Source: a phage. Taken from it: a stretch of DNA of 43,803 nucleotides. The position numbers and the translations under genes were made by a program. This document shows positions 3,823-41,422 of this stretch, piece after piece (position 1 is the first letter of the stretch; each line of letters begins with the position of its first letter). Below the pieces are notes generated by a model, which had not been told where the DNA came from, did not search any database, and was given only the letters and a program-made list of their open reading frames with translations. The stretch is from NCBI GenBank assembly GCA_018167155.1, contig GCA_018167155.1_4332.1. One strand, written 5' to 3'.

Positions 3823-3856
3823 AACCCTCACTCCTCTGTCTCGTTCCGATAAGTGA

Positions 3857-3885
3857 ATAGTATCCTATTATGTTGGGGTGTGCAA
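3857..3885 (-). promoter_or_regulatory. Sigma70-like promoter (TTGCAC-N17-TACTAT) with AATAG-N4-CTATT palindrome
   Basis: Plus-strand gtgcaa 3880-3885 and atagta 3857-3862; palindrome AATAGTATCCTATT at 3856-3869. Confidence 0.6.
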
Positions 3886-4266: not shown

Positions 4267-4295
4267 TTGATTTCCCATTATTCGCAATGTATACT
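4267..4295 (+). promoter_or_regulatory. Sigma70-like promoter TTGATT-N17-TATACT for the rightward replication operon
   Basis: Hexamers at 4267-4272 and 4290-4295, about 30 nt upstream of the SD and ATG at 4328; lacks the AATAG palindrome. Confidence 0.5.
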
Positions 4296-4327
4296 TGGTT
4301 TCGTTAACTGATAGTGAGGGTTTGAGA

Positions 4328-4498
4328 ATGACTCAGAATGAGGTAGCTGAGCGTATCGGGGTTACTCGTCGCACGCTTAATAACTGGTTAAAGAGTGGGA
4401 AGTTCCCGGATTGTTGTATTCGCATTATGGGTCGCCGGCAGCCAGGTACGTTCGACCCGGAGAAAGTGGAAGCGTGGATTAAGGAGAATGTGAAATGA
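4328..4498 (+). CDS. AlpA/excisionase-like HTH DNA-binding protein
   Basis: ORF track 4295..4498; ATG at 4328 after GAGGG; motif VAERIGVTRRTLNNWLKSGKFP...VEAWI resembles AlpA-family HTH regulators. Confidence 0.5.
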   Translation: MTQNEVAERIGVTRRTLNNWLKSGKFPDCCIRIMGRRQPGTFDPEKVEAWIKENVK

Positions 4499-7029: not shown

Positions 7030-7056
7030 TAAAAAGAAAGGGGCGTTAAGCCCCTT
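7030..7056. terminator. Hairpin terminator between convergent genes
   Basis: AGGGGC-GTTAA-GCCCCT stem-loop; on the minus strand it is followed by TTTCTTTTT (terminates the XRE gene). Confidence 0.5.
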
Positions 7057-7261
7057 CACCGAACGCCAGCCACTTGGCGTCTACTTCCAGCACTTCCGCC
7101 AGTTTAAACAGCGTTGCCGGGCGGACGTCCTGAGTTACACCGAGCGCAAGTTGGTTAATTGCGCCCTGGGAAACACCAGCCAGGACAGCCAAACGGCGCT
7201 GGGAGATGCCGAGTTCTTTACGGCGTTGTTCTACACGGATGCCTAGTTCAGATGGTTGCAT
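7046..7261 (-). CDS. XRE-family (Cro/CI-type) helix-turn-helix transcriptional regulator
   Basis: 71 aa; LGISQRRLAVLAGVSQGAINQLALG is a classic HTH_3 motif. The only leftward gene inside the rightward operon; SD AAGGAG upstream of the ATG. Confidence 0.75.
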   Translation of the reverse strand: MQPSELGIRVEQRRKELGISQRRLAVLAGVSQGAINQLALGVTQDVRPATLFKLAEVLEVDAKWLAFGEGA

Positions 7262-7281: not shown

Positions 7282-7354
7282 TTGATATGTGAATAGTACC
7301 ATATTAATTATTTTATAAAAGCACATTGACATGTGAATAGTTCGCTATTATAGT
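7282..7354. promoter_or_regulatory. Divergent control region with two copies of the AATAG-N4-CTATT operator-like palindrome
   Basis: Copy 1 AATAGTACCATATT at 7292-7305; copy 2 AATAGTTCGCTATT at 7336-7349 inside TTGACA(7326-7331)-N17-TATAGT(7349-7354), which drives the + gene at 7386. A minus-strand TACTAT over copy 1 may serve the XRE gene. Confidence 0.55.
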
Positions 7355-24183: not shown

Positions 24184-26456
24184 TCACTTAAAGCCTGGTG
24201 CGTTTCTTGTAGCCTTCCTAGCTTTCGATATTTTGCTGTTACTATTCTGCAGCGAAGCAGCAACTTGTTCCTCTATGATGATACGCAAACGGCCTTCTTC
24301 GTCCTGTTCAACGCTGGTGTTGCCAATTTGTGCGCTGGTGTTATTTATAATGCTGATATTGGCCGGCCCGGTACCGCCGCCGTTCTGCCCCATAATTTCC
24401 TTCATCTGCTGTGCTGTGCGTACACGAGACGCGCCAGCTGGCATGATAACTTCTGGTTTACCACGTTCGGCGATAGTAGAAGCCTGCCCCGCAGATAACT
24501 GACCGCCTTGTTCACGGGCGGACCTGATAGCGGAAATCTGCGCCATACCAGCCCCAACGGCAGCAGCAGCGGCTACAGGTGCCAGGAACGGACCAACAAC
24601 AGGGATAGCGGCCGTTGACTTATACGCTTCAATAGCTGCGGTGTACGTGGCGATAGTGGCCTGTACGATAGCGAATGCCTTATACGCGCCAGAAGCCTCG
24701 CCCAACGCGGACCCGATATTTGAGGCCATGTTACCAAAGGCCGTTGCCGTTGCCTCAGCACGCTTGGTGGCGTATTGCTCGTTGATGGCGTTAAGTGCCG
24801 CTTGATACTGTTCCTCTTTAATCAGACCCTGCTCGCGGTACTTATCAGCTACCGCCAGTTTCTGCTGTTCCTGGATATCGAGAAGCTCAAGCTCCGTGGC
24901 ATTCTGGCCCATAATTTGAGCCATGAAGTCGTCGCCTTTCTGCTGCTTTTCCTGGGCTTCTTTCTGACGTTTATCCAGTTCATCTTGCCGTTTTTGCCCT
25001 GCTTCAAGGACAATAGCCGTTTTTGCTTGCTCGTATTCTTTCAGAGACAACGCGCCCTGGCTGTAAAACTCTTTTGCTTTAGCCAGTTTCTGCTGTTCCT
25101 GGGCGTCAATAGCCTTTAACTCGTCGTTGTTCTGACGGGCCAAAGTGTCGAGGTAATCTTGCGCCTGATTGCGCAATTGCTCCGCCTTCTTAGCGGCGGC
25201 TTTTGCCGCTTTATCGTCGGCGTTTCCGGTGCCGCCAGTTCCGCCCTTTTTATTAACAAGGCTGGCTAAGTCAATTTCTTGCTTCTTGCGCTCGTCATAC
25301 TGCTTGCGCTGTTCCTCAATTTCTTTCTTACGCTGCTTAGACCTGTCGGTAATGGCCTGGGATTCCGCCGCTGCGCGTTTTATGCTGGCGGCGTATGCGG
25401 CGTCAGCCTCTGCGGTCAGGTTTTTAAATGTGAGCGCTGCCGTTTTGCTCGGGTCAAACACATCAGCAAGGGTCTGACCTAACGCTACAGCGTAATCGTC
25501 AATGCGCTGGAACCACGCAATAACCTCGTGGAACGTCTGCTGAATGTCAGGCAACCACTCACGGATAGCATCAGGTATAGCCCCCAGCGAGTCTGACATA
25601 TCAACGGATTTGTCCTCGGTGTCGTATGCCAGGTCATTCAGGGCATCAGAAATAAACTTGAACGATTCATTGAACAGTGTCACCCAATCCTGGAGCGTGG
25701 CTGCTATCTCATTAGACGCTATGGCGTCGGTGAGTGCCGCGATAGCATCTTCCGCTCTCGCGGCTTGCTCACCTACGGCGTCACCAAAACCGGATTGCGC
25801 TACCGCAAGAACAAGACCATCGAAGGAGTCGGCGAGGCTCGACAACTGGCCATCTAAGGTCTTCGAACGCGTCTCCATAGCTCCGGCGAAATCAGTGTTG
25901 CCGATGTTTAGCAGGTATTTCTGAATCTCTTCGGAGTTCTTCTTAACGGTAGTCGTTACGCCGCGGAACGTGAACGAAACGGTATCTGCCTGTTGGGAAG
26001 ACTTAATGCCGAACTCTTTCAGCCGCTCAAACTCAAAGGTACTGGCGTCAGCCACAGCCTCAATCATCTGATTAAGGTCTTTACCCATAGCCGCCGCGGT
26101 GTTGCCGTAGGAGATTAACGCCTCTTTGCTGGGATTCAGGCCGAGGGCTACAAGTTTAGTGAAACCCTCTACCGCCTGATTGAGGCCATACGGGGTTTCT
26201 TTTGCGAACTGTTGCAGGACGCTGAAAGCCTTAGCCGCGTTCTCGGCGCTTCCGGTCATTGTGATGAGGCCGGAATTCAGCTTATCGAAGTTGCGCTGAG
26301 AGTCCACCAGCGCACTGAACACCTGTTTGGCGGTTTCCAGACTGACAATGGCAGCCGCGGCAGCACCTGCGGCTTTGGTAAGCCCGTTCAGTTGTGATGT
26401 GGTTTTATCGACGCCGGTCGAAGATACTCGTACTATCAAGCTAGCGGTATCAGCCA
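24184..26456 (-). CDS. Tail tape measure protein
   Basis: ORF track 24184..26472; about 757 aa, Ala/Gln/Glu-rich helical low-complexity sequence, follows the G/T chaperone pair. Confidence 0.85.
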
Positions 26457-27338: not shown

Positions 27339-27367
27339 TTGCACACCCCAATATAATAGGGTACTAT
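27339..27367 (+). promoter_or_regulatory. Sigma70-like promoter TTGCAC-N17-TACTAT with AATAG-N4-CTATT palindrome
   Basis: TTGCAC 27339-27344, TACTAT 27362-27367, palindrome AATAGGGTACTATT at about 27355-27368. Confidence 0.6.
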
Positions 27368-27396
27368 TCACTTACACCAACAATGAGGGGTTTAAA

Positions 27397-27588
27397 ATGT
27401 CAAGTTTACCAGTTTCCTTAATCCTGTTTGCACTTCTCGCCTATTTCGCACCTTTCCTGGTTGCATATTTCCGTAACCATAAAGCGAAGTTGGCGATATT
27501 CATGGCCAACCTGTTTCTCTGTTGGGTTCTGCTGCCGTGGGTATTTATTTTAATCTGGGCGTGCAACTCGAATGTTAACGAGAAGTGA
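27397..27588 (+). CDS. Superinfection immunity (Imm-like) small membrane protein
   Basis: 63 aa; YFAPFLVAYFRNHKAKLAIFMANLFLCWVLLPWVFILIWA matches the Imm_superinfect pattern as I recall it. Track ORF 26962..27588 is a longer frame; the ATG at 27397 follows SD GAGGGG. Confidence 0.55.
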   Translation: MSSLPVSLILFALLAYFAPFLVAYFRNHKAKLAIFMANLFLCWVLLPWVFILIWACNSNVNEK

Positions 27589-27626
27589 GCTAGTATAGGA
27601 CAAATCCTAAACACGAGGAAGTAAGC

Positions 27627-28757
27627 ATGGCCCGTAAGAAAATAACCGACGAACAGTTACAGGAAGAATTGAACGCCGGAATGAAGAATATCGATATAGC
27701 CCGTAAATACGGCATCTCAGACCGCGTTATTCGTATCCGTAAAGCGAAGCTGGCAAAGAAAGGCGTAGGCCACGGCCGCGACGTCAGCCACCTTGTACCG
27801 GACGGCTACAAGATTAAAGGCACGTCGTCACTGGTGGACGAGTTCGGCAACACTAAGCTGCAATGGGTTAAAACCGACACTGACGCCGAACGTCAGGTCG
27901 AGTTGATGAAAGCCGTAATCGAAGGCATGAAGTCAGAGATTACGCCGGTTGCGCCTGTTAAAGCTGCACGCGTCAAACGCGACGATAAACTACTCAATCT
28001 TTACACTGTATCTGATTTCCATCTCGGTATGCTGGCCTGGGCCGACGAGAGCGGCGACGACTGGGATATGAAAATCGCGGAAGACCTGTTCTCTCGTTGG
28101 TTCGACGCGGCGTTTCAGAAAGCGCCAGATGCAGGAACAGGGGTTATTAACCTGCTGGGCGACTTCGCGCACTTCGATAGTCTGGATGCCGTTACCCCCG
28201 AGTCGCGTCATGTGTTGGACGCAGACACTCGCTACCAGAAACTGGTGCGCTACATGATTCGTATGGTGCGCCGTGTTGTTGATATGGCGCTGGTTAAGCA
28301 TAAAAATGTCCGCTTGCTCATCGTGCAAGGGAACCACGACGAGAGCGGAATGATTTGGTTGGCTGAGATGTTTAGCACTCTGTACGACAACGAGCCGCGT
28401 GTGTTCGTCGATACGTCGCCGGATGTGTACAAGATGGTGCAACACGGCAAAACGACATTGTTCTTTACCCACGGACATAAAGCGCGCTTCGACGCTATCG
28501 AACCGGTTATGATTGCCAAGTTCCGCAAAGCGTTTGGTGAGAGCGTTTACAGCTACGCCCACGTAGGACACCTACACCATCAGAAGATTGTAGAAAGCCG
28601 TAATATGATTGTTGAGCAACACCGCACCTTAGCGGCTAAAGACGCCTACGCCTCCCGCGGCGGATGGATGTCAAGCCGCAGTGCAAACGTAATTACTTAT
28701 AGCGCCGAATATGGCGAGGTTGCACGTTTAACTATTTCACCGGAGATGCTGGGATGA
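27627..28757 (+). CDS. Calcineurin-like metallophosphoesterase with N-terminal HTH-like domain
   Basis: 376 aa; ordered motifs SDFHLG (DxH), GDFAHFD (GD), QGNHDE (GNH[DE]), THGH, GHLHH (GHxH); N-terminal KNIDIARKYGISDRVIRIRK looks like an HTH. Confidence 0.65.
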   Translation: MARKKITDEQLQEELNAGMKNIDIARKYGISDRVIRIRKAKLAKKGVGHGRDVSHLVPDGYKIKGTSSLVDEFGNTKLQWVKTDTDAERQVELMKAVIEGMKSEITPVAPVKAARVKRDDKLLNLYTVSDFHLGMLAWADESGDDWDMKIAEDLFSRWFDAAFQKAPDAGTGVINLLGDFAHFDSLDAVTPESRHVLDADTRYQKLVRYMIRMVRRVVDMALVKHKNVRLLIVQGNHDESGMIWLAEMFSTLYDNEPRVFVDTSPDVYKMVQHGKTTLFFTHGHKARFDAIEPVMIAKFRKAFGESVYSYAHVGHLHHQKIVESRNMIVEQHRTLAAKDAYASRGGWMSSRSANVITYSAEYGEVARLTISPEMLG

Positions 28758-28984
28758 CTTCAAAATACAACCGAACAATGACAAACACTCACGGCAGCAC
28801 TATGACCGTAGACGTTTACGATGTTCTCCGTGCATTCGACATCCGTGACCCCGCACTACAGCACGCATTGAAGAAACTATTGTGTATGGGTCTTCGCGGG
28901 CACAAGGACACCGGAACCGACTTAGCGGAAGCAATTGAAAGTCTGGAGAAGTTACGAGAGTACCGTAGTAATATAGATGAGTAA
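28754..28984 (+). CDS. Hypothetical protein
   Basis: 76 aa, ATGA-coupled to the phosphoesterase gene. Confidence 0.45.
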   Translation: MTSKYNRTMTNTHGSTMTVDVYDVLRAFDIRDPALQHALKKLLCMGLRGHKDTGTDLAEAIESLEKLREYRSNIDE

Positions 28985-28991
28985 GAATGTA

Positions 28992-29150
28992 ATGAAAACA
29001 ATATACGTAATCCGCGTATATGACGAAGAATGGGATGAGTGGGTTGGTATTTATGCTGTTGGTAGTAAGGAAGAGGCCTCGAAAGAAATGACAGAACGTA
29101 GTAACCGAGGTCAGTTAACTAACTTCTATGAAATGCCATTCAAAAGTGAG
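28992..29150 (+). CDS. Hypothetical small protein (hand-called, 52 aa)
   Basis: Reads MKTIYVIRVYDEEWDEWVGIYAVGSKEEASKEMTERSNRGQLTNFYEMPFKSE; ends 5 nt before the terminator. Confidence 0.3.
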
Positions 29151-29154
29151 TGAG

Positions 29155-29183
29155 AAAAGGCCCCGTTAGGGGCCTTAGTTTTA
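29155..29183. terminator. Bidirectional terminator (strong on minus strand after the tail tube gene)
   Basis: AAAAGGCCCC-GTTA-GGGGCCTT-AGTTTTA, a near-identical copy of the element at 17224. Confidence 0.7.
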
Positions 29184-33584: not shown

Positions 33585-34634
33585 TTAAGCACCGACACCA
33601 GTTACCAGGAAGGCAATCGGTACATGCTTACGGTCAACAACACGGTTCCAGTTAGAGGCGTTCGCCAGGTCCTGCCAGGAAGCGGAACGCGCAACAGTCT
33701 CGGTGCCGTTACCGGTGATTACCGCGCTGGTGAAGCTGTAACCAAACGGATGCAGCAACCAGGTCTTACGTGACCACAGGGTTTCAACACCACCACCGTT
33801 ACCACGAGACGCTTCATACTCATAGTGCAGCGGTTTGACCGGATTGCCTTCACCGTAACCGATAGCGCCGTTACCGAAGATGATAGAGATGAACTTGCGG
33901 CTACCACCGGAGCCAACTACGGTCATGCTGTCGTCGACAATAACGCGGTAGCCCTGGTAGGTGGCGAACAGGGTGTCGTTGTCGGCGTCTTTGATGAAGT
34001 CGATAAGCTGCTGCTTACGCGCCTGCGCATAAACGAAGCTGTGCATCGCGATAGCACCCAGCACTTCACCACCGTTATCCATCAGAGCATCACCCATAGT
34101 CTGGGTAGCGTCGATGAACGCGCCAGCGTCGAAGCCCAGAGTAGCGGACACGTCGATAACCATGTCATTCTGCTCGTGGTAAGCATCAGTAGCGGCTACG
34201 TTGTCATTGTACAGGCCGAGCGCGGTAGCAATCAGACGGCGCTGTGCCTGACGCTGCCAGAAGTTATCAAGACGGGACGCTACGGATTGCAGCGGGTTCT
34301 GGCTGGTGAGTTCAACAGTCAGGTCAGCCTGGCCAAAACCTTCGTTCAGGTACGCAACGCGGGCCATCATCTCACCAGTCTGCACATTACGCGGGGTGGC
34401 TATGTCCTGATACACATCGTTCGAGTAATTAGGCTCGATGGATGTGTCAATCGCTTTCCAGAAAGGAATGTTGGCGACGTTGGACGAGCCGCGAGCAATC
34501 TCTGCGGCGTACGGAGTCGGGGTCAGAATACCGGACTGGAAGAACGCGGTTTTTTCTACCGGGTCCTCGGTCATGTAAGACGCCAGGACCGGGATGTTGC
34601 CAGTTACGATATCGCCGATAGTGGTAATTGCCAT
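33585..34634 (-). CDS. Major capsid protein
   Basis: 349 aa directly downstream of the scaffold gene; SD GAGGAAATAATA; size and position fit an HK97-fold capsid protein. Confidence 0.75.
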   Translation of the reverse strand: MAITTIGDIVTGNIPVLASYMTEDPVEKTAFFQSGILTPTPYAAEIARGSSNVANIPFWKAIDTSIEPNYSNDVYQDIATPRNVQTGEMMARVAYLNEGFGQADLTVELTSQNPLQSVASRLDNFWQRQAQRRLIATALGLYNDNVAATDAYHEQNDMVIDVSATLGFDAGAFIDATQTMGDALMDNGGEVLGAIAMHSFVYAQARKQQLIDFIKDADNDTLFATYQGYRVIVDDSMTVVGSGGSRKFISIIFGNGAIGYGEGNPVKPLHYEYEASRGNGGGVETLWSRKTWLLHPFGYSFTSAVITGNGTETVARSASWQDLANASNWNRVVDRKHVPIAFLVTGVGA

Positions 34635-34636
34635 TA

Positions 34637-35338
34637 TTATTTCCTCAGGGCTTTAAGTTGCCGTTCAAATTCGGCAGGGTTCGATTTATACAGAGCTAAA
34701 CGCTCCGCTTCACTCATGTCTTTAAACGCTGGTGCGGCCCCGCCGCATTTGCCACCGGAAGCCCCGCCGCCGGAAGCTGCATTTGCTTTAATCAAATGCG
34801 AAAACGCTTTGTGTTCACGCAGGTATTTGCGGAACTGTTCCGGGTCAGTCGTGATTACGTTACCGTCTGCGCCAACAAACTTAGTAACCACATCATCACC
34901 TTCGAACTCAGTCTTAACGAACGGTGCAAGAATGTCCACTGCTTCCGGGGTGATAAAGTCGCCCGCGAAAGAGCCTAACACCGCTTTACGTTCGCTGCCG
35001 AGGATGCGCTCAGCCATTTTGGTGATGCGGCCATCTTTCTCGGCTAACACCGGGTCATACTGGCTACGAATCGTCTTTTCGAACTCGTCCATTTTACCAG
35101 CGGCTTTTAACGCCTCCTGGTGTGCACGTTGCCGTTCTTCTTCGGCCTCTTTTGCTTTGCGAGCGGCTTCTTTCTTCTCCGCCAGCAATGCTTCCTGATT
35201 GGCCTTAAGACCGGCAACTTCTTTCTCAATCAGCGCCTGAACTTCTTCAGCGGTGAACATTTTCGGAGCGTCACCGCCACCGGCTTTATCTTCTGCCCCA
35301 GCTTCTTCCTGGAACGGATAACGTAAAAAACGATTCAT
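34637..35338 (-). CDS. Capsid scaffolding protein
   Basis: ORF track 34637..35392; ATG at 35338. Highly charged coiled-coil sequence (EALLAEKKEAARKAKEAEEERQRAHQEALKAAG) immediately upstream of the capsid gene. Confidence 0.65.
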   Translation of the reverse strand: MNRFLRYPFQEEAGAEDKAGGGDAPKMFTAEEVQALIEKEVAGLKANQEALLAEKKEAARKAKEAEEERQRAHQEALKAAGKMDEFEKTIRSQYDPVLAEKDGRITKMAERILGSERKAVLGSFAGDFITPEAVDILAPFVKTEFEGDDVVTKFVGADGNVITTDPEQFRKYLREHKAFSHLIKANAASGGGASGGKCGGAAPAFKDMSEAERLALYKSNPAEFERQLKALRK

Positions 35339-35420
35339 AGTCAGTATGTCCCCTGGACGTTGGAACCCGGGCCACCCGGATTTACATGTCAAGAATAAAT
35401 TATTCCAACATGCAAGGCAA

Positions 35421-35684
35421 CTATTCCAGAATATTCCTCACGTAATCCTGCAACATGAACACTTTCAGTCTCAGTTGCCGTACGCATTCGGCATTCTGAA
35501 CGTCGATAGCCAAATCCTCGTCAGCGTCGTTACTTGGCGGCGCCAGTTTGCACGGCGGCTGCATCATCGTCGTATCCGGGGATGGAATTGGCGTTGGCGA
35601 CGGCGCGGGACTTGAGCTGCACGCGCTCAGGGTCAAAAGTGCACACGCTGCGACCAGGCGTTTTAATGTACTTAACGACTTCAC
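35421..35684 (-). CDS. o-spanin (Rz1-like outer-membrane lipoprotein), overlapped with the i-spanin gene
   Basis: 87 aa in a different frame; signal peptide with lipobox LTLSAC, then Pro-rich SSSPAPSPTPIPSP. Starts inside the Rz-like gene and extends past its stop. Confidence 0.65.
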   Translation of the reverse strand: MKSLSTLKRLVAACALLTLSACSSSPAPSPTPIPSPDTTMMQPPCKLAPPSNDADEDLAIDVQNAECVRQLRLKVFMLQDYVRNILE

Positions 35685-35916
35685 GGGTAATCACCTCTGA
35701 TTTCGTCTTGCCTTCGTTGTCAGCGGCTGCGGCCTTCGATTCATCCTGCTGCTGCCGTTGTGTTTTCTTCGCTAACTCAGCCTGTGCTTTCTGCTGTTGC
35801 TGCGAAACGAGATTCTCCCGGCCTTCGCCCCAGCCGATGCGGTATTGATAGTAGCCGTGTGCGTATAACAGGATGATGAAACATGCTCCCGCTACGACAG
35901 TTGCTTTAAGATTCAT
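35530..35916 (-). CDS. i-spanin (Rz-like)
   Basis: 128 aa; N-terminal transmembrane segment TVVAGACFIILLYAHGYY, then Gln/Ala/Lys/Glu-rich coiled coil; perfect SD AAGGAG 5 nt upstream. Confidence 0.65.
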   Translation of the reverse strand: MNLKATVVAGACFIILLYAHGYYQYRIGWGEGRENLVSQQQQKAQAELAKKTQRQQQDESKAAAADNEGKTKSEVITREVVKYIKTPGRSVCTFDPERVQLKSRAVANANSIPGYDDDAAAVQTGAAK

Positions 35917-36140
35917 GTTTCTCCTTTCTAGATAAGTAAAGCCCCGCCTTAAAGCGGGGCGCTAGTCCTTATCATTTAAACATAGAAACGGCGTAATCTC
36001 AGTAAACCAGTTACTTTTTACACAAGCAATAGAGTATGGCCCTTCCGAACGCGTCAGCGTAACTACACTCAGGACTTACGTCCCGCTCCGTTACCTGCCC
36101 GCGCCGCGGTCGCTTGTTCATACTTCACAAGCTCAGGTGG

Positions 36141-36184
36141 AGCTTAGCACATTTTCAGTTAAAAGTCAACTATTCGAATAGTTT
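36141..36184 (-). promoter_or_regulatory. Candidate leftward promoter (TTGACT-N17-TAAGCT) abutting a 16-bp perfect palindrome AACTATTCGAATAGTT
   Basis: Minus-strand -35 from plus agtcaa 36164-36169 and -10 from plus agctta 36141-36146; palindrome at 36168-36183. Confidence 0.35.
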
Positions 36185-36235
36185 ATTCCAACATTTACAA
36201 TTGAGCGGAATAACTGGAATAGGTAAATAAATAGT

Positions 36236-36264
36236 TTGCAGACACCAGTATAATAGGGTACTAT
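36236..36264 (+). promoter_or_regulatory. Sigma70-like promoter TTGCAG-N17-TACTAT with AATAG-N4-CTATT palindrome
   Basis: TTGCAG 36236-36241, TACTAT 36259-36264, palindrome AATAGGGTACTATT. Confidence 0.6.
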
Positions 36265-36298
36265 TCAGTTATCGAAGCGAGAGATAAGGGGCTTAAAG

Positions 36299-36535
36299 AT
36301 GAAAGAATTAATTATCGCGGTATTGACGACACTGGCAGTTTCGCTGGCAGTTTCGCTGGCAGTTTCACTGGTAATTGCTGCTGGTGTACGTAGCCTAGAT
36401 AAACACGAGTGTGAGAACTACGGAGATGTCACAGGCAGAGAGGTAATGTATAGTTACACAACTTGTTATGTGAAAACTGATAGAGGTTTTATCCCTCGTG
36501 GAGAACTTAATTTTAGAGCAGCGACACATGAATAA
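36299..36535 (+). CDS. Small membrane-anchored protein with tandem AVSL repeats
   Basis: 78 aa; N-terminal hydrophobic LIIAVLTTLAVSLAVSLAVSLVIAAGV encoded by three tandem 12-bp repeats, then a 50-aa Cys-containing domain; own promoter and terminator. Confidence 0.6.
   Translation: MKELIIAVLTTLAVSLAVSLAVSLVIAAGVRSLDKHECENYGDVTGREVMYSYTTCYVKTDRGFIPRGELNFRAATHE
36334..36369 (+). repeat. Three tandem 12-bp repeats (GGCAGTTTCGCT-like) inside the CDS
   Basis: Directly visible: ctggcagtttcgctggcagtttcgctggcagtttcactgg. Confidence 0.7.
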
Positions 36536-36538
36536 AAC

Positions 36539-36564
36539 TAAGGCCCCATAACGGGGCCTTTTAT
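36539..36564. terminator. Terminator hairpin between convergent genes
   Basis: AGGCCCC-ATAAC-GGGGCCT followed by TTTTAT; identical stem to the element at 38641. Confidence 0.65.
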
Positions 36565-37025
36565 CATTCTGGCTTAGTAACCTTCGCCGCCTTGCTTACC
36601 GCCTCAACTCCATCGGCATCGGTAACTTTAACGAAGTATTCGCCAACGGCATTAACCGTCAGGGACAGGGCCTCTTCCGGGGCGTTTACCACTTCCTTAC
36701 CGTCTTTGTACCAGGTCAGCGCGTATGGCGCTTTTCCAGCCTTAACCTCGACAGTGATAGTCGCGCTGCCGTCTACCAGTTCAGCGTCCTGGGGTTGTAC
36801 GGAGAAATACACATCACCTGCGTCCGCCAGATACGGAATCTCGTAAAACATGCCCGCCGCCGGTAGCGCAATACCGGTCTTGTCTGCAAACGGCATATCG
36901 TCTACCGGTGTACCGAGTACACTTTCGTCTTCAATAAACACCACGTTCTCGCCGGAGCCAGACACGCGGGCATACTGGACTACACGACGCGACGGCACAT
37001 CTGTTACTTTGAAAAAGCCCATCAT
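36564..37025 (-). CDS. Hypothetical structural protein with C-terminal Ig-like domain
   Basis: 153 aa; TITVEVKAGKAPYALTWYKDGKEV is Ig-like. Confidence 0.5.
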   Translation of the reverse strand: MMGFFKVTDVPSRRVVQYARVSGSGENVVFIEDESVLGTPVDDMPFADKTGIALPAAGMFYEIPYLADAGDVYFSVQPQDAELVDGSATITVEVKAGKAPYALTWYKDGKEVVNAPEEALSLTVNAVGEYFVKVTDADGVEAVSKAAKVTKPE

Positions 37026-38070
37026 TATTCCCCTTTCAGATAATCAGCAACACGTTTATCGAGTTCCGCCATCTGCTTAAGTGTGAGCGGATTCCCGAAA
37101 CAATCTACAGATATTACGCGAAACTCTTCTGGCGATATACCGCTGTTGCGGAAAATCTTACCTCGCACCGGGCCGAGGGCTTCATCCACGAACCACGCCG
37201 GTTGTTGTTTCAGGAACTCGTAGTAAGTGGTGTCTGCGCTTACCTGAGTACCTCCGTCCGCACCCTTAGCCGCACGTTTTGCACCTTTATCGAGGAAGTC
37301 GAACTCTGAACTGATTACAGGCGCAGTGGTCGTTCTGCAGTTAGGATGGAAAGGTGGCCTCGGCCCTTTGCCGATTTCGTATTCCTGCCCGTCCAGGCTA
37401 CGGCATATTGTTGATGTACGACTGTCGAGTGTGGCGACGATTTCGTATTTCTCGATGATGTCGTCGTTCTGGCGGTACGTCTCGTTGCGTGCTTCGTTGG
37501 ACACGTGAGACAGCGCAGTACGTATTACCGTAGCGGCGTTACGTTCAGAGATGTCAGCCAGTCCACCAGCGCCTACGACATTCTTAACAATCTGCCGTGT
37601 TGTTTGGCCTTGTACAAAGCCCATCTTAACGCCGGTTACCAGGCGAGCGACTTCGGTTTCACCCCAGCCAGACATCAACTTAGTGAAATCAACCGGCTTG
37701 TCGCTTAGCGATAGCGGTTGAAACTCGGCGGCGGCCCACACCTGTTCGGCGGTAGGCGTAACAAATTCCGCATTAACGTTGGTGGTAAGTGTCTTTACGT
37801 TCCACTCTGCTTCATATGCCGCCAGTTCCTTAAGGTCTTCTGTCAGCTTTGTCTGCCAGTCACCAGTAAGCCCTGTCAGTGCTTCTTCAAGGTCACGTAA
37901 CAGTTTATTCAGTCGCGCTGTGCTGCGACCGTCGTCGCCGAACAACAGCACCTGTCGTTTGATTTCGTCCCGCATTTCCCGGATGAACGGTGTGAGGTCT
38001 TTCACTTCGCCGGATGCGGTGCGTTGCAGCCATATCTGGTGGCTAATTAGGGATGTAAGTAAGCTCATAT
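37025..38070 (-). CDS. Head morphogenesis protein (Mu gpF / SPP1 gp7 family)
   Basis: ORF track 37025..38125; ATG at 38070 after AGGAGGG. C-terminal ICRSLDGQEYEIGKGPRPPFHPNCRTT matches the Mu F HPNCRC signature. Confidence 0.7.
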
Positions 38071-38112
38071 GCCCTCCTGTAGTATCGACAGTGTAACGTA
38101 TAAAAATAATAT

Positions 38113-38141
38113 TTGCAGACACCAATATAATAGGGTACTAT
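38113..38141 (+). promoter_or_regulatory. Sigma70-like promoter TTGCAG-N17-TACTAT with AATAG-N4-CTATT palindrome
   Basis: TTGCAG 38113-38118, TACTAT 38136-38141; the promoter-to-SD sequence is nearly identical to the 36236 promoter. Confidence 0.6.
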
Positions 38142-38167
38142 TCAGTTAACTTAAACAGGAGATGAAA

Positions 38168-38329
38168 ATGGTTACTTTGATTACTTGGGAACACGAAAAT
38201 AGTCAACCTGAAACGCGTGAATTCGAAACTGTAGCGGCTTGCTACCGCCTGGCGTCAGGCGGATTCTATAAATCACAGATTGTAAATGAGTTTGGAGTGG
38301 TGGATTATGAGTTTACGAAACAATCTTAA
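38168..38329 (+). CDS. Hypothetical small protein (hand-called, about 53 aa)
   Basis: ATG 6 nt after AGGAG; reads MVTLITWEHENSQPETREFETVAACYRLASGGFYKSQIVNEFGVVDYEFTKQS. Confidence 0.35.
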   Translation: MVTLITWEHENSQPETREFETVAACYRLASGGFYKSQIVNEFGVVDYEFTKQS

Positions 38330-38651
38330 GAACCACTTGAAGGTCTACGGGCCTTATGGCTTGCATTCATGGAACGGTGGGTATGACGTAAACGATGACC
38401 TGCCGATACGTAAAATAGCACGCGCGGCGCGACGCAATGTAAAGCCGGGTGACGTGCTAGTCATACGAGATAATAATGTCATTGTTGAGGTTGAGAAAGT
38501 TCATGGCATGTTTCTCACAGTAATACCTGTTGATGTTGCTTTGCGTGACGCAAGGCCCTACCGAGAAGCTGGGGGTGGTAAAACTGGTAAATACACATAC
38601 GGCAGGATTGAGATACATAAAACACATCTTGATAAAGTTAAGGCCCCATAA
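38307..38651 (+). CDS. Hypothetical protein
   Basis: ORF track 38286..38651; internal ATG at 38307 after GGAGTGGTGG; 114 aa basic protein. Confidence 0.5.
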   Translation: MSLRNNLKNHLKVYGPYGLHSWNGGYDVNDDLPIRKIARAARRNVKPGDVLVIRDNNVIVEVEKVHGMFLTVIPVDVALRDARPYREAGGGKTGKYTYGRIEIHKTHLDKVKAP

Positions 38652-38665: not shown

Positions 38666-40138
38666 TTACTGCGGTTGTTGTTGAGCCGACTGCGGAATCT
38701 CTCCTGATACCTGAGTAACCGCACCCAACGGCAGCGGCGCGTCCTCGATAGCGTTCTGAATATCCTCGTCTGTCCAGTCGATTACACCCGCTTTACGCAA
38801 CGCAGCATAATAAGCAGTAGCGGGTAGCAGGCCGGCGTTAATATCCGCCATCCACTGCGCTCGTTCGGGCGCGGTCATCGGTTGCAGGAAGAACTCCATG
38901 TTAAGTTTAAACTCAATCTCTGTGCCTTCACGCAACCCTAACATCGCGGCTACCCAGCGCAACGCATCGGTGTACGCCATGCTTACGTTACGCGCAATTG
39001 TCGCCATAACAGACGTGTCGGCGCCGCGTTGCAGGCGGGCCGATTCGGCGGTGATTTGCTGCGTCGGGGTGATAAGCTGTGCGCCAATCTGAATGGCCTG
39101 ATTCTCCTTATCCAGCATGTTCTGCTTGGCGAGGTTGTTCTCTCCAGCCTGAACCAGAAACGCGTTGCCGCCGTAACCGATGTTATGGCCTGAACGCGAC
39201 CCCATACGCACGCCGTGGGGGTTGGCTTCTTTCCACTGTTCCATGCTCATGTTCTCGCCAGGGGCGATGAACAGAGTGGGCTGGCCTACAACGAAGCTGG
39301 ATTCCTCATTGTCTGCGCTGTTGCGGAAATGTCCGATATTAAGCTCAGCCAACGGCAGCAAAGGTGCGTCGTCAATGGTTGCATCGTTGTTGCTCGCCCC
39401 AATGAACGTGAACGGGATTTTACCGCGCAACTGTTCGCCGAGTTCCGGGAATATCTCGATTACTTCGTCCTTAGCGCCACCTTCGGCATCGAAGCGGTAA
39501 ATGCGCTGGCGATAACGACCGTCAATCAGGTCAAGGACGCGGTATTGTTCGCCGAACTTTGTTTCGAACTCTGCACCAGGTTCTGAGTATTCCCATACCT
39601 CACGCAGCACGACCATTGTCACACGGTTAACTGAACCGACGCGGGTCAGTCGCCAGTTGATGATGTTCTCTGCGGTGTAGAATGCGATGACCGGGTTTAA
39701 TAATCCTGCGTTCTGTTCGGCTGCTGTTGCCGCTGCTGTCTCCGGCGCATCCACCAGCAAGCCCCCACGCCCCATTGAGTCAATCTCCATTAGCGTGTCC
39801 TGCGCGTGCTGCCACAGCCCGACACCGGAGCCATCAGCATTGCGCAACAGGTACTCCAGTTCAGGCGGGATAATCTGCTCAGGGTCTTTGTGCATCACTG
39901 ACCCCACCATCCCAGCCAGGGTACGTTTAGTGAAGTTGTAGCAAATAGCGCCGTTCTCGTATTCTTCCTGGCGCTGTGCAGCGTAGGTCTGGTCGGGTTC
40001 GTTCTTCCCGACATTTCGAAGATAGCGAATAAGGTCGCCTTCCAGCGCGTGTCGCACCTTCTGCCATTTATTGAAGTGATGCAGCCATTCCCGGTGTTTT
40101 GTCTTAACACCCTGATTCTGACCGTTCATAGTTAACAT
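38666..40138 (-). CDS. Portal protein
   Basis: 490 aa directly downstream of TerL; SD AAGAGGA; call rests on size and conserved TerS-TerL-portal-MuF synteny. Confidence 0.65.
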   Translation of the reverse strand: MLTMNGQNQGVKTKHREWLHHFNKWQKVRHALEGDLIRYLRNVGKNEPDQTYAAQRQEEYENGAICYNFTKRTLAGMVGSVMHKDPEQIIPPELEYLLRNADGSGVGLWQHAQDTLMEIDSMGRGGLLVDAPETAAATAAEQNAGLLNPVIAFYTAENIINWRLTRVGSVNRVTMVVLREVWEYSEPGAEFETKFGEQYRVLDLIDGRYRQRIYRFDAEGGAKDEVIEIFPELGEQLRGKIPFTFIGASNNDATIDDAPLLPLAELNIGHFRNSADNEESSFVVGQPTLFIAPGENMSMEQWKEANPHGVRMGSRSGHNIGYGGNAFLVQAGENNLAKQNMLDKENQAIQIGAQLITPTQQITAESARLQRGADTSVMATIARNVSMAYTDALRWVAAMLGLREGTEIEFKLNMEFFLQPMTAPERAQWMADINAGLLPATAYYAALRKAGVIDWTDEDIQNAIEDAPLPLGAVTQVSGEIPQSAQQQPQ

Positions 40139-40150
40139 TGAATAATCCTC

Positions 40151-41422
40151 TTAAAGTGCGAAAGTCACCGGGACGTTAATAACTGGTTTGCGAATCGGCA
40201 TTTCATATGCAATTGGGTATGTGGTTCCGTCATTCTGGTGGTCCACGCCGCCAGATTTATCCGGTTCGCCGTTCTTGTCGTAAGCCTGTTGCTCCAGGCA
40301 TCGCGCCGTAACTGGGCAAGCCTGTTCATTAATCATGACCATACCAGATTCAAGCGCCTTATTCATCGCCGATACGCGGTCTTTAACCGGCGGGTTTGTC
40401 GATTTAGCGCGTACTTCGAAACCGGCCTGCTGTAGCTGGGCGATGTCTGAGGTACTGGCGTTGTTGCTTTTACGGTTTTTGCCGCTGGCGTCCGGGTACA
40501 TAACGATATAGTGGCCCTTACTTTTCCAGCGTTCAGTTATAGCCCGCACTACATCCGGCGTATCGAACATATCAACCAACTCGGCAACAGCGTGCCACAC
40601 CTTCCCGCGTTGCACGTAAACTGTGCTCGCCATGTGACCTACGTTAAAGTCCTGCCCGATATACAGAGTCTCGCCAGGCTTGATTGTTTCGCGACTACTA
40701 TTTTTCCTGCGGTCGTAAGCGTAGTAGACCGTCCCAGCCGTGAGGTTCACGAACTCGCCGTTGATGTAGGCGTCGATCAACTGACCCGGGTATGTGTCGC
40801 GTAATGACTGCACATAATCTTCTGGCAGGAACGGGTTAGACAGGGTAGATGCCTGAATCATCTCGTAGCCTGGATTCTTTTTTACTACCCAGCGGTCATG
40901 TACGAAACGGAACCCTTCCGGCGTAGTGAACACGGAAACGGTATTAGCCGGTTTCGGCGTAATAGGTTTATACGTCCGCGGTAACTGGCGGTTACGGGCG
41001 ATTACTTTGTTCCACGCGTGCTCAGCGTGTTCCATGTTAAGGGTGTCCAATTCGTCGATTTTTGCACGAAACGATTCGTAGCCAACTATTCGTGCTGGAT
41101 TATCGAGTGTACGCAGGACAAAATCCCCGAATTGTCCTGAAGACGTATATATTATGTTGTCTGACTTGTTGTATTTGTACCGGATACCCCAGTCCGTCAG
41201 CTTCTCTTCCATACGAGGCGCAAGGATAAGACGTACCAGGTCGTAGGTAGGCTCGTACATGGCGATGATAGAATCGCTACCACCTTCCATACTGTCCAGT
41301 AGCGCGGAGTTGCACATAACCTCTGATTTCCCGGTGCCGAAGCCAGCTACGAACGCAGGGAACTTGCAATGCATACCGAGAAACGCGCCTTGCGGTTCTG
41401 TCGCCGTGATATTAACGTTCAC
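40151..41422 (-). CDS. Terminase large subunit
   Basis: 423 aa; Walker A FVAGFGTGKSE near the N-terminus, acidic nuclease-like C-terminal region; GTG start with AAGGTG SD. Confidence 0.8.
   Translation of the reverse strand: MNVNITATEPQGAFLGMHCKFPAFVAGFGTGKSEVMCNSALLDSMEGGSDSIIAMYEPTYDLVRLILAPRMEEKLTDWGIRYKYNKSDNIIYTSSGQFGDFVLRTLDNPARIVGYESFRAKIDELDTLNMEHAEHAWNKVIARNRQLPRTYKPITPKPANTVSVFTTPEGFRFVHDRWVVKKNPGYEMIQASTLSNPFLPEDYVQSLRDTYPGQLIDAYINGEFVNLTAGTVYYAYDRRKNSSRETIKPGETLYIGQDFNVGHMASTVYVQRGKVWHAVAELVDMFDTPDVVRAITERWKSKGHYIVMYPDASGKNRKSNNASTSDIAQLQQAGFEVRAKSTNPPVKDRVSAMNKALESGMVMINEQACPVTARCLEQQAYDKNGEPDKSGGVDHQNDGTTYPIAYEMPIRKPVINVPVTFAL

Follow-up and report, generated by a model that had tools for sequence, protein, structure and literature searches.

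Candidate operator arrays of GGAATA half-sites at two predicted promoters around the spanin genes of a Kagunavirus-like phage

Introduction

Short sequence words repeated close to promoters are known from several control regions with which the locus described here can be compared. In the operators OR and OL of phages lambda and 434, which are bound by dimers of helix-turn-helix (HTH) proteins of the Cro/CI type, the repeated word overlaps or abuts the -35 and -10 hexamers and lies between or beside divergent promoters. In phage phi29, the p4 switch region lies between the divergent early A2b/A2c and late A3 promoters, and the late region of lambda runs from pR' through the 6S RNA and tR' to the lysis and head genes. 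In Escherichia coli, the operator of the sialic-acid regulator NanR, (GGTATA)3, is made of tandem hexamers 2-3 nt apart to which dimers bind cooperatively (PMC8012715). In Kagunavirus phages, the motif tgAATAGTa-ccTATTat-T has been detected with the program PHIRE in the papers on phages Golestan and fBC-Eco01, one of which assigned it to a phage RNA polymerase (PMC9825357, PMC7203180). Here we report on GGAATA repeats located on both sides of the spanin genes in a phage sequence of 43,803 nucleotides (GenBank assembly GCA_018167155.1, contig GCA_018167155.1_4332.1), hereafter called the window, which is the near-complete genome of a Kagunavirus-like (Guernseyvirinae) siphophage, a coliphage. 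In the literature searched, we found no mention of GGAATA repeats in Kagunavirus-, Jerseyvirus- or Cornellvirus-type phages.

We propose, with a probability of about 55%, that these repeats are the half-sites of a conserved operator array, one array accompanying each of two predicted sigma70-type promoters that would restart transcription of the structural strand around the spanin genes. The first one, P_L1, is located upstream of the spanins and the second one, P_L2, downstream of them, ahead of the scaffold and major capsid genes. The repeats, their conservation, the constraint on their nucleotides and their fixed geometry relative to conserved -35 and -10 elements are observed here, whereas the firing of the promoters at the predicted places and the binding of a protein to the repeats are inferred from the sequence.

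Comparison Sets

A BLAST search with positions 34600-37100 matched 484 phage records. Nearest to the window are Escherichia Kagunavirus genomes of 42-45 kb (92-95% identity); the remaining matches are mostly Salmonella phages and, among them, the records opened were Jerseyvirus or Cornellvirus. The left flank was aligned over the region upstream of the scaffold start codon in 10 GenBank relatives and 58 IMG/VR loci, and the right flank over 51 distinct P_L1 regions from three genera, i.e., Kagunavirus, Jerseyvirus and SP-031-type Cornellvirus (hereafter the three genera). Codons of the o-spanin gene were compared in 43 distinct Kagunavirus and Jerseyvirus sequences, and the leader RNA of P_L1 was aligned over 28 sequences of the same two genera. 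The promoter scanner was used with a cut-off of 9 consensus positions.

Clustering and Conservation of the GGAATA Repeats

The initial annotation had located the repeats, a palindrome and promoter-like hexamers on both flanks of the spanins, and all its coordinates are correct. On the left flank, the plus-strand letters ttattcc (35400-35406), ctattcc (35421-35427) and atattcc (35431-35437) read GGAATAA, GGAATAG and GGAATAT on the minus strand, with start-to-start distances of 21 and 10 bp, beside tgtcaa at 35387-35392, which is a minus-strand TTGACA. The right flank carries ttattcc (36183-36189), ggaataa (36207-36213) and ggaatag (36216-36222), along with the perfect 16-bp palindrome AACTATTCGAATAGTT at 36168-36183 and TTGCAG at 36236-36241. 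The 12-mer reported as common to both flanks, TTATTCCAACAT, indeed exists in exactly two copies, both on the plus strand (35400-35411 and 36183-36194), and extends to a 19-mer with 17/19 positions matching (35393-35411 and 36176-36194). Exact matches to GAATANNNTATTC in the window are likewise only two, the 35393-35406 element and 36176-36188. By our own arithmetic, a genome of this size should hold about 2 direct 12-mer repeats within 800 bp and about 0.2 repeats of the 17/19 type; these identities between the flanks are insignificant alone, and in their extended 12/19-nt form they are confined to Kagunavirus.

The case against chance is made instead by the clustering of the repeats and, above all, by their conservation in relatives. 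GGAATA is present in 27 copies in the window, for 17.7 +/- 4.0 expected, and 6/27 are gathered within 35401-36221 (820 bp). The window holds two clusters of at least three copies per 40 bp; among 2000 first-order Markov genomes, one such cluster was obtained in 4 and two in none, while simulations based on the local AT-rich composition reached 6 copies in 0/20000. Only one other of the 2080 hexamer classes, the coding-type CCGCCG, also forms two clusters. Moreover, both arrays recur in the three genera, each made of GGAATA-type half-sites in two pairs, one tandem and one inverted. A repeated word is thus found at fixed promoter positions and conserved above background, by its clustering, by gapless alignment across the three genera and by its invariance in 43 sequences (see below), which supports the initial suggestion that these repeats are promoter-associated and look like protein-binding sites.

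The Predicted Promoter Upstream of the Spanin Genes

The elements of the right flank are the following.

36141..36169, minus strand: P_L1, predicted leftward promoter upstream of the leader and the spanins
36168..36189: proximal operator block of P_L1, with the palindrome AACTATTCGAATAGTT at 36168-36183 overlapping GAATA-N3-TATTC at 36176-36188 and GGAATAA at 36189..36183
36207..36222, plus strand: distal tandem GGAATAA-CT-GGAATAG, 9-bp period, at about -73 to -88 of P_L1

P_L1 is composed of a -35 TTGACT (36169..36164, 5/6 consensus positions), a 17-nt spacer and an extended -10 TGc-TAAGCT (36149..36141) whose hexamer TAAGCT occupies 36146..36141 (3/6, plus the TG), with a predicted start near 36134. 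Hexamers, a spacer within 16-18 nt and a TGn element are those of a sigma70-type promoter, and the arrangement is kept in the three genera, the counterparts being TAGACT..TGcTACGCT in Jerseyvirus and TGGA(C/T)T..TGaTAACCT in Cornellvirus. The candidate leftward promoter that had been placed at the palindrome is hence borne out at the sequence level, being conserved and corresponding to HP1, predicted independently in phage fBC-Eco01 (PMC9825357, Table S2).

On the structural strand, the elements succeed one another as TTATTCC-AG-TTATTCC, a 17-nt gap, GGAATAA-AC-TATTC, GAATAG, TTGACT, the 17-nt spacer ending in TGc, and TAAGCT. The 51 distinct sequences align without a gap from the tandem to the -10; half-sites, -35 and -10 are conserved, while the intervening and outer bases vary. 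Within this frame, GGAATA(A/C)-N2-TATTC followed by 6 nt and the -35 is kept in the three genera and the CTATTC/GAATAG extension is specific to Kagunavirus, whereas the 9-bp period of the distal tandem and the 16-17-nt gap separating it from the proximal block are common to Kagunavirus, Jerseyvirus and Cornellvirus.

The distal tandem lies, as the initial annotation had noted, between the leftward promoter and a rightward one at 36236. Phage SETP7 and the K1ind1-like L018 have no plus-strand gene at this place, the order being Hoc stop codon, terminator, tandem and P_L1; as the tandem persists without rightward gene or promoter, it would therefore belong to P_L1. In addition, no GGAATA array was found upstream of the other six copies of the 19-mer embedded in the rightward promoter, TATAATAGGGTACTATTCA. 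A role of the tandem as activator site of the rightward promoter was rejected on the same evidence (SETP7, K1ind1-like phages and the six array-free copies).

The Predicted Promoter of the Scaffold and Capsid Genes

Alignments of relatives disclose a second candidate promoter within the left array, with the following elements.

35392..35420, minus strand: P_L2, predicted sigma70-type promoter of the scaffold and major capsid genes
35431..35437, minus strand: GGAATAT, distal half-site of the left tandem, at about -52 to -46 of P_L2, within the o-spanin codons AGG AAT ATT
35421..35427, minus strand: GGAATAG, half-site abutting the P_L2 -35, at about -42 to -36
35393..35406, minus strand: GGAATAA and the inverted repeat GAATA-ATT-TATTC, across the P_L2 spacer and -10, centred near -14
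35387..35392, minus strand: TTGACA of the initial annotation, at about +1 of P_L2, its first base being the last base of the P_L2 -10
35364..35382, minus strand: hairpin of the scaffold 5' untranslated region (UTR), AATCCGGG-TGG-CCCGGGTT (whole: CCGGGnGGCCCGG), about 10 nt past the predicted P_L2 start

The -35 TTGCCT (35420..35415, 4/6) and the -10 TATTCT (35397..35392, 4/6 with A2 and T6) are separated by 17 nt, and the predicted start lies near 35385. With these hexamers, spacer and A2/T6 bases, P_L2 has a sigma70-type layout; its consensus match (8/12) is below the cut-off of the scanner. Every clade examined has an equivalent: TTGCCT-17-TATTCT in Kagunavirus, Jerseyvirus and Cornellvirus, TTGCAT-17-TATTCT in loci L057 and L064, TTGCAT-17-TATATT in L065, TTGTTA-17-TATATT in L062 and TTGCCC-17-TATATT in Serratia phage Tsm2. 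In several clades, an opposite-strand gene sits between the spanins and the scaffold gene, and the scaffold and capsid genes therefore need their own promoter, as which P_L2 would be well placed. Since Tsm2, L057, L064, L062 and L065 possess P_L2 without the GGAATA tandem, the repeats are an add-on and not a part of the core promoter.

Two of the left half-sites are embedded in the last six codons of the o-spanin gene, AGG AAT ATT CTG GAA TAG (R N I L E stop), which contain both GGAATAT and GGAATAG. GGAATAT at 35431..35437 is invariant, third codon positions included, in all 43 distinct sequences compared. Indeed, the third positions of the six codons show zero variation in this set, to be compared with an average of about 10 minor alleles per 43 sequences over the 34 codons upstream. 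The GGAATAG half-site holds the stop codon TAG itself (35423..35421), and Cornellvirus keeps GGAATAG-TTGCCT as non-coding DNA (AATAGGAATAGTTGCCTT). Because third positions are invariant and GGAATAG is retained where it codes for nothing, we consider from these alignments that the nucleotides of the left repeats are themselves under purifying selection. GGAATAT is absent from Cornellvirus, in which a moron separates the o-spanin gene from P_L2; the o-spanins of this genus end in K N V T E stop, and part of the GAAT pattern is thus inherited with the protein. The GGAATAA half-site and its inverted repeat are conserved in the three genera, and the GAATAG-TTG junction is common to P_L2 and P_L1.

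The initial annotation had noted a TTGACA beside the left repeats. It has no -10 partner, and the conserved promoter is TTGCCT-17-TATTCT instead. As a -35 of the scaffold promoter it was rejected, since the -10 position 16-18 nt downstream falls inside the conserved hairpin and the hexamer itself is unconserved, Jerseyvirus having TTGTTACA in its place and L062 and L065 lacking it; TTGGAA-17-GTAAAT, another scaffold promoter considered, was rejected as unconserved too. TTGACA (35392..35387) is homologous to the P_L1 -35 TTGACT within a duplicated block of 19-25 nt, and is better read as the start-site region of the predicted P_L2. The hairpin that follows is found in every clade, with a variable loop base, no U-tract and compensatory changes at the base of its stem (AGCCGGG..CCCGGCT, ACACCGGG..CCCGGTGT and GACGGG..CCCGTC). 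It is probably the 5' stem-loop of the scaffold mRNA, with a stabilising or processing role.

The Spanin Cassette and its Leader RNA

Between the two predicted promoters are located a leader and the overlapping spanin genes.

35917..36134, minus strand: about 200 nt of untranslated, structured leader separating P_L1 from the i-spanin start
35916..35530, minus strand: i-spanin
35684..35421, minus strand: o-spanin, overlapping the i-spanin gene, lipobox LSAC

Both spanin genes are annotated as Rz-like in relatives. The o-spanin, read from a GTG start, is 87 aa long and has a signal peptide and a lipobox (LLTLSAC); GenBank relatives annotate the last 47-48 codons only. In phage fEg-Eco19 (L004, 1887-2393), an HNH homing endonuclease gene is inserted in the spanin region.

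The leader is conserved in the three genera, contains the conserved motif CATTCGGAAGGGCC and has a folding energy z of -3.2. According to RNAalifold and pair counts, 98.3% of cells are paired, against 33-53% with slid partners, and 9 pairs are compensatory; G-U pairs fit the minus (structural) strand. A closing helix, supported by covariation, joins the 5' end of the leader to the sequence just past a G+C hairpin at 35960..35941. For this hairpin, the scanner lists 8 pairs and the tail TTTACTTATC, which is weak here and weaker still in Jerseyvirus and Cornellvirus; the U-tract side being paired with the leader 5' end in the closing helix, the hairpin may not be a simple terminator. A search of Rfam gave no relevant match, either in the window region (E <= 1) or in five related loci (E <= 0.5), and the leader may be a new cis-regulatory RNA. 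Two other readings were discarded. The 36-aa open reading frame (ORF) at 36121..36011 on the minus strand, listed as a hypothetical protein in several relatives (e.g., Bas70_0007), is probably not a gene, its frame being broken in relatives by single-base indels. In Serratia phage Tsm2, what looks like a plus-strand promoter by the spanin start overlaps the conserved leader motif CATTCGGAA, and the likeness is probably a coincidence.

Gene Context, Rightward Promoter and Cargo Genes

The structural genes of the window are on the minus strand, with holin and endolysin genes sited elsewhere in the genome. Between the Hoc-like gene and the spanins are found a bidirectional terminator, a small plus-strand ORF and 382 bp without credible ORF.

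41422..40151, minus strand: large terminase
40138..38666, minus strand: portal
38125..37025, minus strand: head morphogenesis
37025..36564, minus strand: Hoc-like decoration
36540-36560: bidirectional terminator shared with the Hoc-like gene
36299..36535, plus strand: 78-aa membrane-type ORF (cargo)
36236..36267, plus strand: rightward promoter of the small plus-strand gene, TTGCAG, 17 nt, TACTAT, with the embedded 19-mer TATAATAGGGTACTATTCA at 36249-36267
35338..34637, minus strand: scaffold
34634..33585, minus strand: major capsid
2613-2631, 3854-3872, 7290-7308 and 7334-7352: minus-strand copies of TATAATAGGGTACTATTCA
27352-27370, 36249-36267 and 38126-38144: plus-strand copies of TATAATAGGGTACTATTCA

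The window contains seven copies of the consensus promoter of this phage, the rightward promoter at 36236 among them. Each copy of the 19-mer is preceded by TTGCA(C/G)-N8, and the motif holds an AATAG-N4-CTATT inverted repeat. The three plus-strand copies each head an islet of plus-strand genes within the minus-strand structural operon. The 19-mer is absent from Cornellvirus SP-031, which has GGAATA arrays. The small plus-strand gene and its promoter are best seen, from these comparisons, as cargo inserted beside a pre-existing control region. The back-to-back promoters of the initial annotation thus stand as predictions on both strands, with the correction that the rightward one is part of the inserted cargo.

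Cargo at the junction between Hoc and spanin genes varies in relatives: a DpnIIB-type methylase, a PAPS reductase, a sliding-clamp-like protein, a RusA-like resolvase, small membrane proteins, or none. Hot spots for opposite-strand cargo in the structural operon are located at 36299-36560, 38126-38651 and 27352-29180, with matching sites in relatives. Within the small plus-strand ORF, 36332-36367 consists of three tandem 12-mers (CTGGCAGTTTCG, the last one ending in A), which encode LAVS three times in a predicted membrane segment.

Candidate Regulators and Clade-Specific Words

In two distant metagenomic clades, arrays of another word occupy the place of the GGAATA arrays. Upstream of the spanins, L062 (1639-1681, 1729-1871) carries GACTCGCAA twice at a 9-bp period with a perfect palindrome partner, then TTGCGAGT by TATAAAT, and L065 (1845-1884) carries TTTGCGAAA twice and an inverted copy. 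These TTGCGAG-type arrays resemble the GGAATA arrays in position, in their tandem plus inverted layout and in their periods of 9-12 bp. Such a swap of the word with preservation of the layout suggests a clade-specific, probably phage-encoded regulator. In Salmonella phage FSL SP-031 (L073), a third GGAATA-type array (GAATAAATTATTCC, GGAATAA, GGAATAC) lies at 26069-26125, at the junction of the i-spanin and o-spanin genes, and partly encodes the o-spanin residues M-N-K-L-F-L.

The phage encodes two recognisable HTH proteins, which were considered as candidates only.

7261..7046, minus strand: XRE-type HTH protein, found in all three genera
4295..4498, plus strand: HTH_17 (Xis/AlpA-like) protein, 80-85% conserved between Kagunavirus and Jerseyvirus

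In a time course on a related Kagunavirus, an HTH gene, perhaps the counterpart of the XRE gene of the window, is among four early genes (PMC12645636). Beside the XRE gene, 7300-7352 presents a plus-strand TTGACA-17-TATAGT face to face with the leftward promoter at 7334-7352 and shares TTGACATGT(G/A)AAT with the P_L2 start region; it is likely an early divergent control region.

Among host factors, the RcsB/RcsAB box TN(G/A)GAN4TC(T/C)NA (PMC7913699) was set aside, its matches in the window being only at 1190 and 27596, neither at the arrays, and GAGGAATATTCTGG failing both outer positions. The NanR operator, which consists of at least two close GGTATA repeats (PMC8012715), was likewise rejected: all six repeats are GGAATA, with A and not T at position 3, and no GGTATA is present in the arrays. 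An informal comparison with the motifs of DnaA, Fis, OxyR, ArgR, CRP, sigma54, sigmaE and sigma32 gave unfit spacing or key bases.

Proposed Model and Competing Explanations

According to the model that we favor, P_L1, lying just past the terminator and the cargo gene that end the terminase-to-Hoc unit, would drive the leader of about 200 nt, followed by the spanins. The array of P_L1 would stand upstream of it, with the tandem pair at a 9-bp period, the 17-nt gap and the inverted pair preceding the -35. P_L2, which like P_L1 would be a promoter of the host RNA polymerase, would drive the scaffold, major capsid and downstream genes, and its array would be interleaved with the promoter, the tandem at about -50 and -40 and the inverted pair spanning spacer and -10. 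Both arrays would most likely be occupied by a sequence-specific DNA-binding protein, a dimer or higher oligomer that is probably phage-encoded, and this shared binding could couple or time the expression of spanin and capsid genes. The arrays would flank the spanins simply since the predicted P_L1 lies upstream and P_L2 downstream of them. The initial annotation spoke of activator sites for late transcription, of which candidate sites linked to promoters are retained; their positions are mixed, one palindrome overlapping the -10 in a repressor-like manner and others lying near -40 and -50 as activator sites do, and would fit activation as well as repression.

Several observations count against this proposal. 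The tandem pairs are oppositely oriented at the two promoters and the arrays differ in their positions relative to -35 and -10, so that one common mode of action sits uneasily with them. Core promoter or coding elements overlap parts of the left array (the -10 TATTCT, the Glu-stop codons GAA-TAG and the Asn codon AAT), and GGAA(A)TAATTTAT at P_L2 is conserved even in L065, whose repeats upstream of the spanins differ. None of the candidate regulators follows the distribution of the arrays: the XRE protein is everywhere and diverged (54% and 43% identity between genera, with a different recognition helix), yet the half-sites are identical, while HTH_17 and its neighboring 77-aa protein had no matches outside Kagunavirus and Jerseyvirus, and none is annotated in the array-bearing SP-031, so that an assignment by co-occurrence failed. 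Finally, the sole published Kagunavirus time course gives gene-level time classes without start-site resolution (PMC12645636).

The constancy of the half-sites leads to the possibility that the sites are bound by a host transcription factor that both Escherichia and Salmonella possess and that would tie the spanin and capsid promoters to a physiological signal of the host. Half-sites are identical in phages of E. coli (Kagunavirus) and of Salmonella (Jerseyvirus and Cornellvirus) while the shared phage HTH protein diverged to 43-54%, Serratia phage Tsm2 is without arrays, and GGAATAA-CT-GGAATAG is formally similar to operators of repeated hexamers such as that of NanR (PMC8012715). However, no known factor fits, the RcsB box being unmatched and all six repeats departing from the NanR hexamer at position 3, and the metagenomic clades with different repeats in the same layout, which come from the same sample series as many Kagunavirus contigs, fit a phage-specific factor better; we regard a host factor as unlikely, although worth bearing in mind. 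The repeats could also have no dedicated binder and be a by-product of promoter core, o-spanin codons and local homogenisation of two related promoters. Indeed, P_L2 uses TATTCT as its -10, the -35 of both leftward promoters is immediately preceded by GAATAG, which might be an upstream or extended -35 element, the spacer is AT-rich, two repeats are Arg-Asn and Glu-stop codons with Cornellvirus homologues (K-N...E-stop), GGAA(A)TAATTTAT survives in L065, and the 12-mer and 19-mer identities are insignificant alone. Such a by-product would leave unexplained the distal tandem at about -73 to -88 of P_L1, with its fixed 9-bp period in three genera amid varying neighbors, as well as the zero synonymous change over six codons, the third array of SP-031 and the parallel arrays of different words in other clades, and we hold it for rather improbable.

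The repeats had alternatively been viewed as insertion scars of a spanin module and, in a broader form, they would be module boundaries or short homologies serving the exchange of the cassette and its cargo. The direct 12/19-nt repeats do bracket a 783-bp segment bearing the spanins, BLAST homology breaks at the outer edges of the arrays (query 972 = 36221, query 178 = 35427) and variable cargo genes are found immediately outside them. Nevertheless, spanins are present at this locus in all relatives sampled, down to those whose scaffold proteins are 56-70% identical to that of the window, with an i-spanin match upstream of the scaffold gene in 57/58 IMG/VR loci; in all genera, as in the metagenomic relatives furthest from the window, they lie between the head-morphogenesis gene (or the Hoc-like gene where present) and the scaffold gene. 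The comparison with relatives lacking spanins, suggested in the initial annotation, found none to work with: among the 10 GenBank relatives and the IMG/VR loci inspected, no spanin-less site was seen, and the direct repeats are thus present without the empty, single-copy site expected from a target-site duplication. Besides, a neutral scar would neither stay invariant across genera nor suppress synonymous change, the extended identity between flanks is restricted to Kagunavirus, and any essential regulatory block would be expected to show breakpoints where the conserved element ends. The notion of a scar finds no support in these data and is rejected, and a recombination role in any form appears very improbable. 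Least credible of all is a function of the left repeats in RNA, where a protein such as CsrA would bind their GGA motifs and thereby govern translation of the scaffold gene or processing of the mRNA. It would account for three sense-strand GGA motifs spaced 10 and 21 nt apart and followed by the conserved hairpin and a GGGGA ribosome-binding site; however, the right tandem reads UUAUUCC on the structural strand and is upstream of both predicted starts, so that no GGA-sense transcript would exist, and inverted repeats at fixed distances from -35 and -10 typify DNA sites.

A bolder extension of the operator proposal can be conceived. A phage-encoded oligomeric regulator might bridge the arrays 783 bp apart (and the third one in SP-031) and loop out the spanin cassette, forming together with the leader RNA a late-gene switch in a subfamily of virulent siphophages, with a specificity swapped between clades (GGAATA versus TTGCGAG) in the manner of temperate immunity modules. 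This scenario is speculative and we think it improbable as a whole. These phages have been reported to lack lysogeny genes (PMC7203180, PMC9825357).

Comparison with Known Systems and Perspectives

Guernseyvirinae (Kagunavirus, Jerseyvirus and Cornellvirus) are among the phages most often isolated for therapy and biocontrol of E. coli and Salmonella. The present analysis provides a testable map of their spanin locus, with two predicted internal promoters, a shared operator word with its geometry, a spanin leader RNA and the insertion points of cargo. If a regulator binds the repeats, it would offer a handle on late-gene control in the subfamily and, for engineering, safe insertion sites and tunable late promoters; even if they have no binder, the sites mark the limits of essential promoter blocks.

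Compared with the operators OR and OL of lambda and 434, the arrays have in common a short repeated word that overlaps or abuts -35 and -10 between or beside divergent promoters, a phage-encoded XRE/Cro-type HTH protein, and different words in the same layout from clade to clade, as in immunity regions. They differ in being located at internal promoters of structural genes and not at an immunity switch, in mixing tandem and inverted repeats, and in that the recognition helix of the XRE protein, a candidate binder, varies while the sites do not. The right flank recalls the phi29 p4 region, with an early-type consensus promoter and a structural promoter back to back, about 66 bp apart, and repeated sites between them; by analogy, a single bound protein could act as repressor of one promoter and activator of the other. 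In contrast to phi29, there is no p4 homologue and no sequence similarity, and the rightward promoter is missing in many relatives; being dispensable, it argues that the right-flank sites are not primarily a divergent-promoter switch.

Regarding NanR, the period of GGAATAA-CT-GGAATAG is that of its operator and Kagunaviruses include phages of the K1 capsule (polysialic acid); however, position 3 differs, the arrays also occur in Salmonella Jerseyvirus and Cornellvirus, and NanR sites lie downstream of the RNA polymerase site, making this a resemblance of form only. With respect to the motif detected by PHIRE, the rightward promoter at 36236-36267 is a perfect copy, and its AATAG/CTATT inverted repeat is related to the GAATAG word; its assignment to a phage RNA polymerase is probably wrong. 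The GGAATA arrays are a separate feature, unmentioned in those papers. Finally, the succession of P_L1, an untranslated leader of about 200 nt ending in a G+C hairpin, spanins and head genes parallels the late region of lambda in this order only, with the difference that the hairpin of the window is poor in its U-tract and paired in a conserved closing helix, the U-tracts of Jerseyvirus and Cornellvirus being weaker still; no Q-like protein is found in the annotations of Bas70 or SP-031, beyond which no search was made. The leader RNA is previously undescribed, and operator arrays on phage promoters, as which we interpret these repeats, are of a familiar kind.

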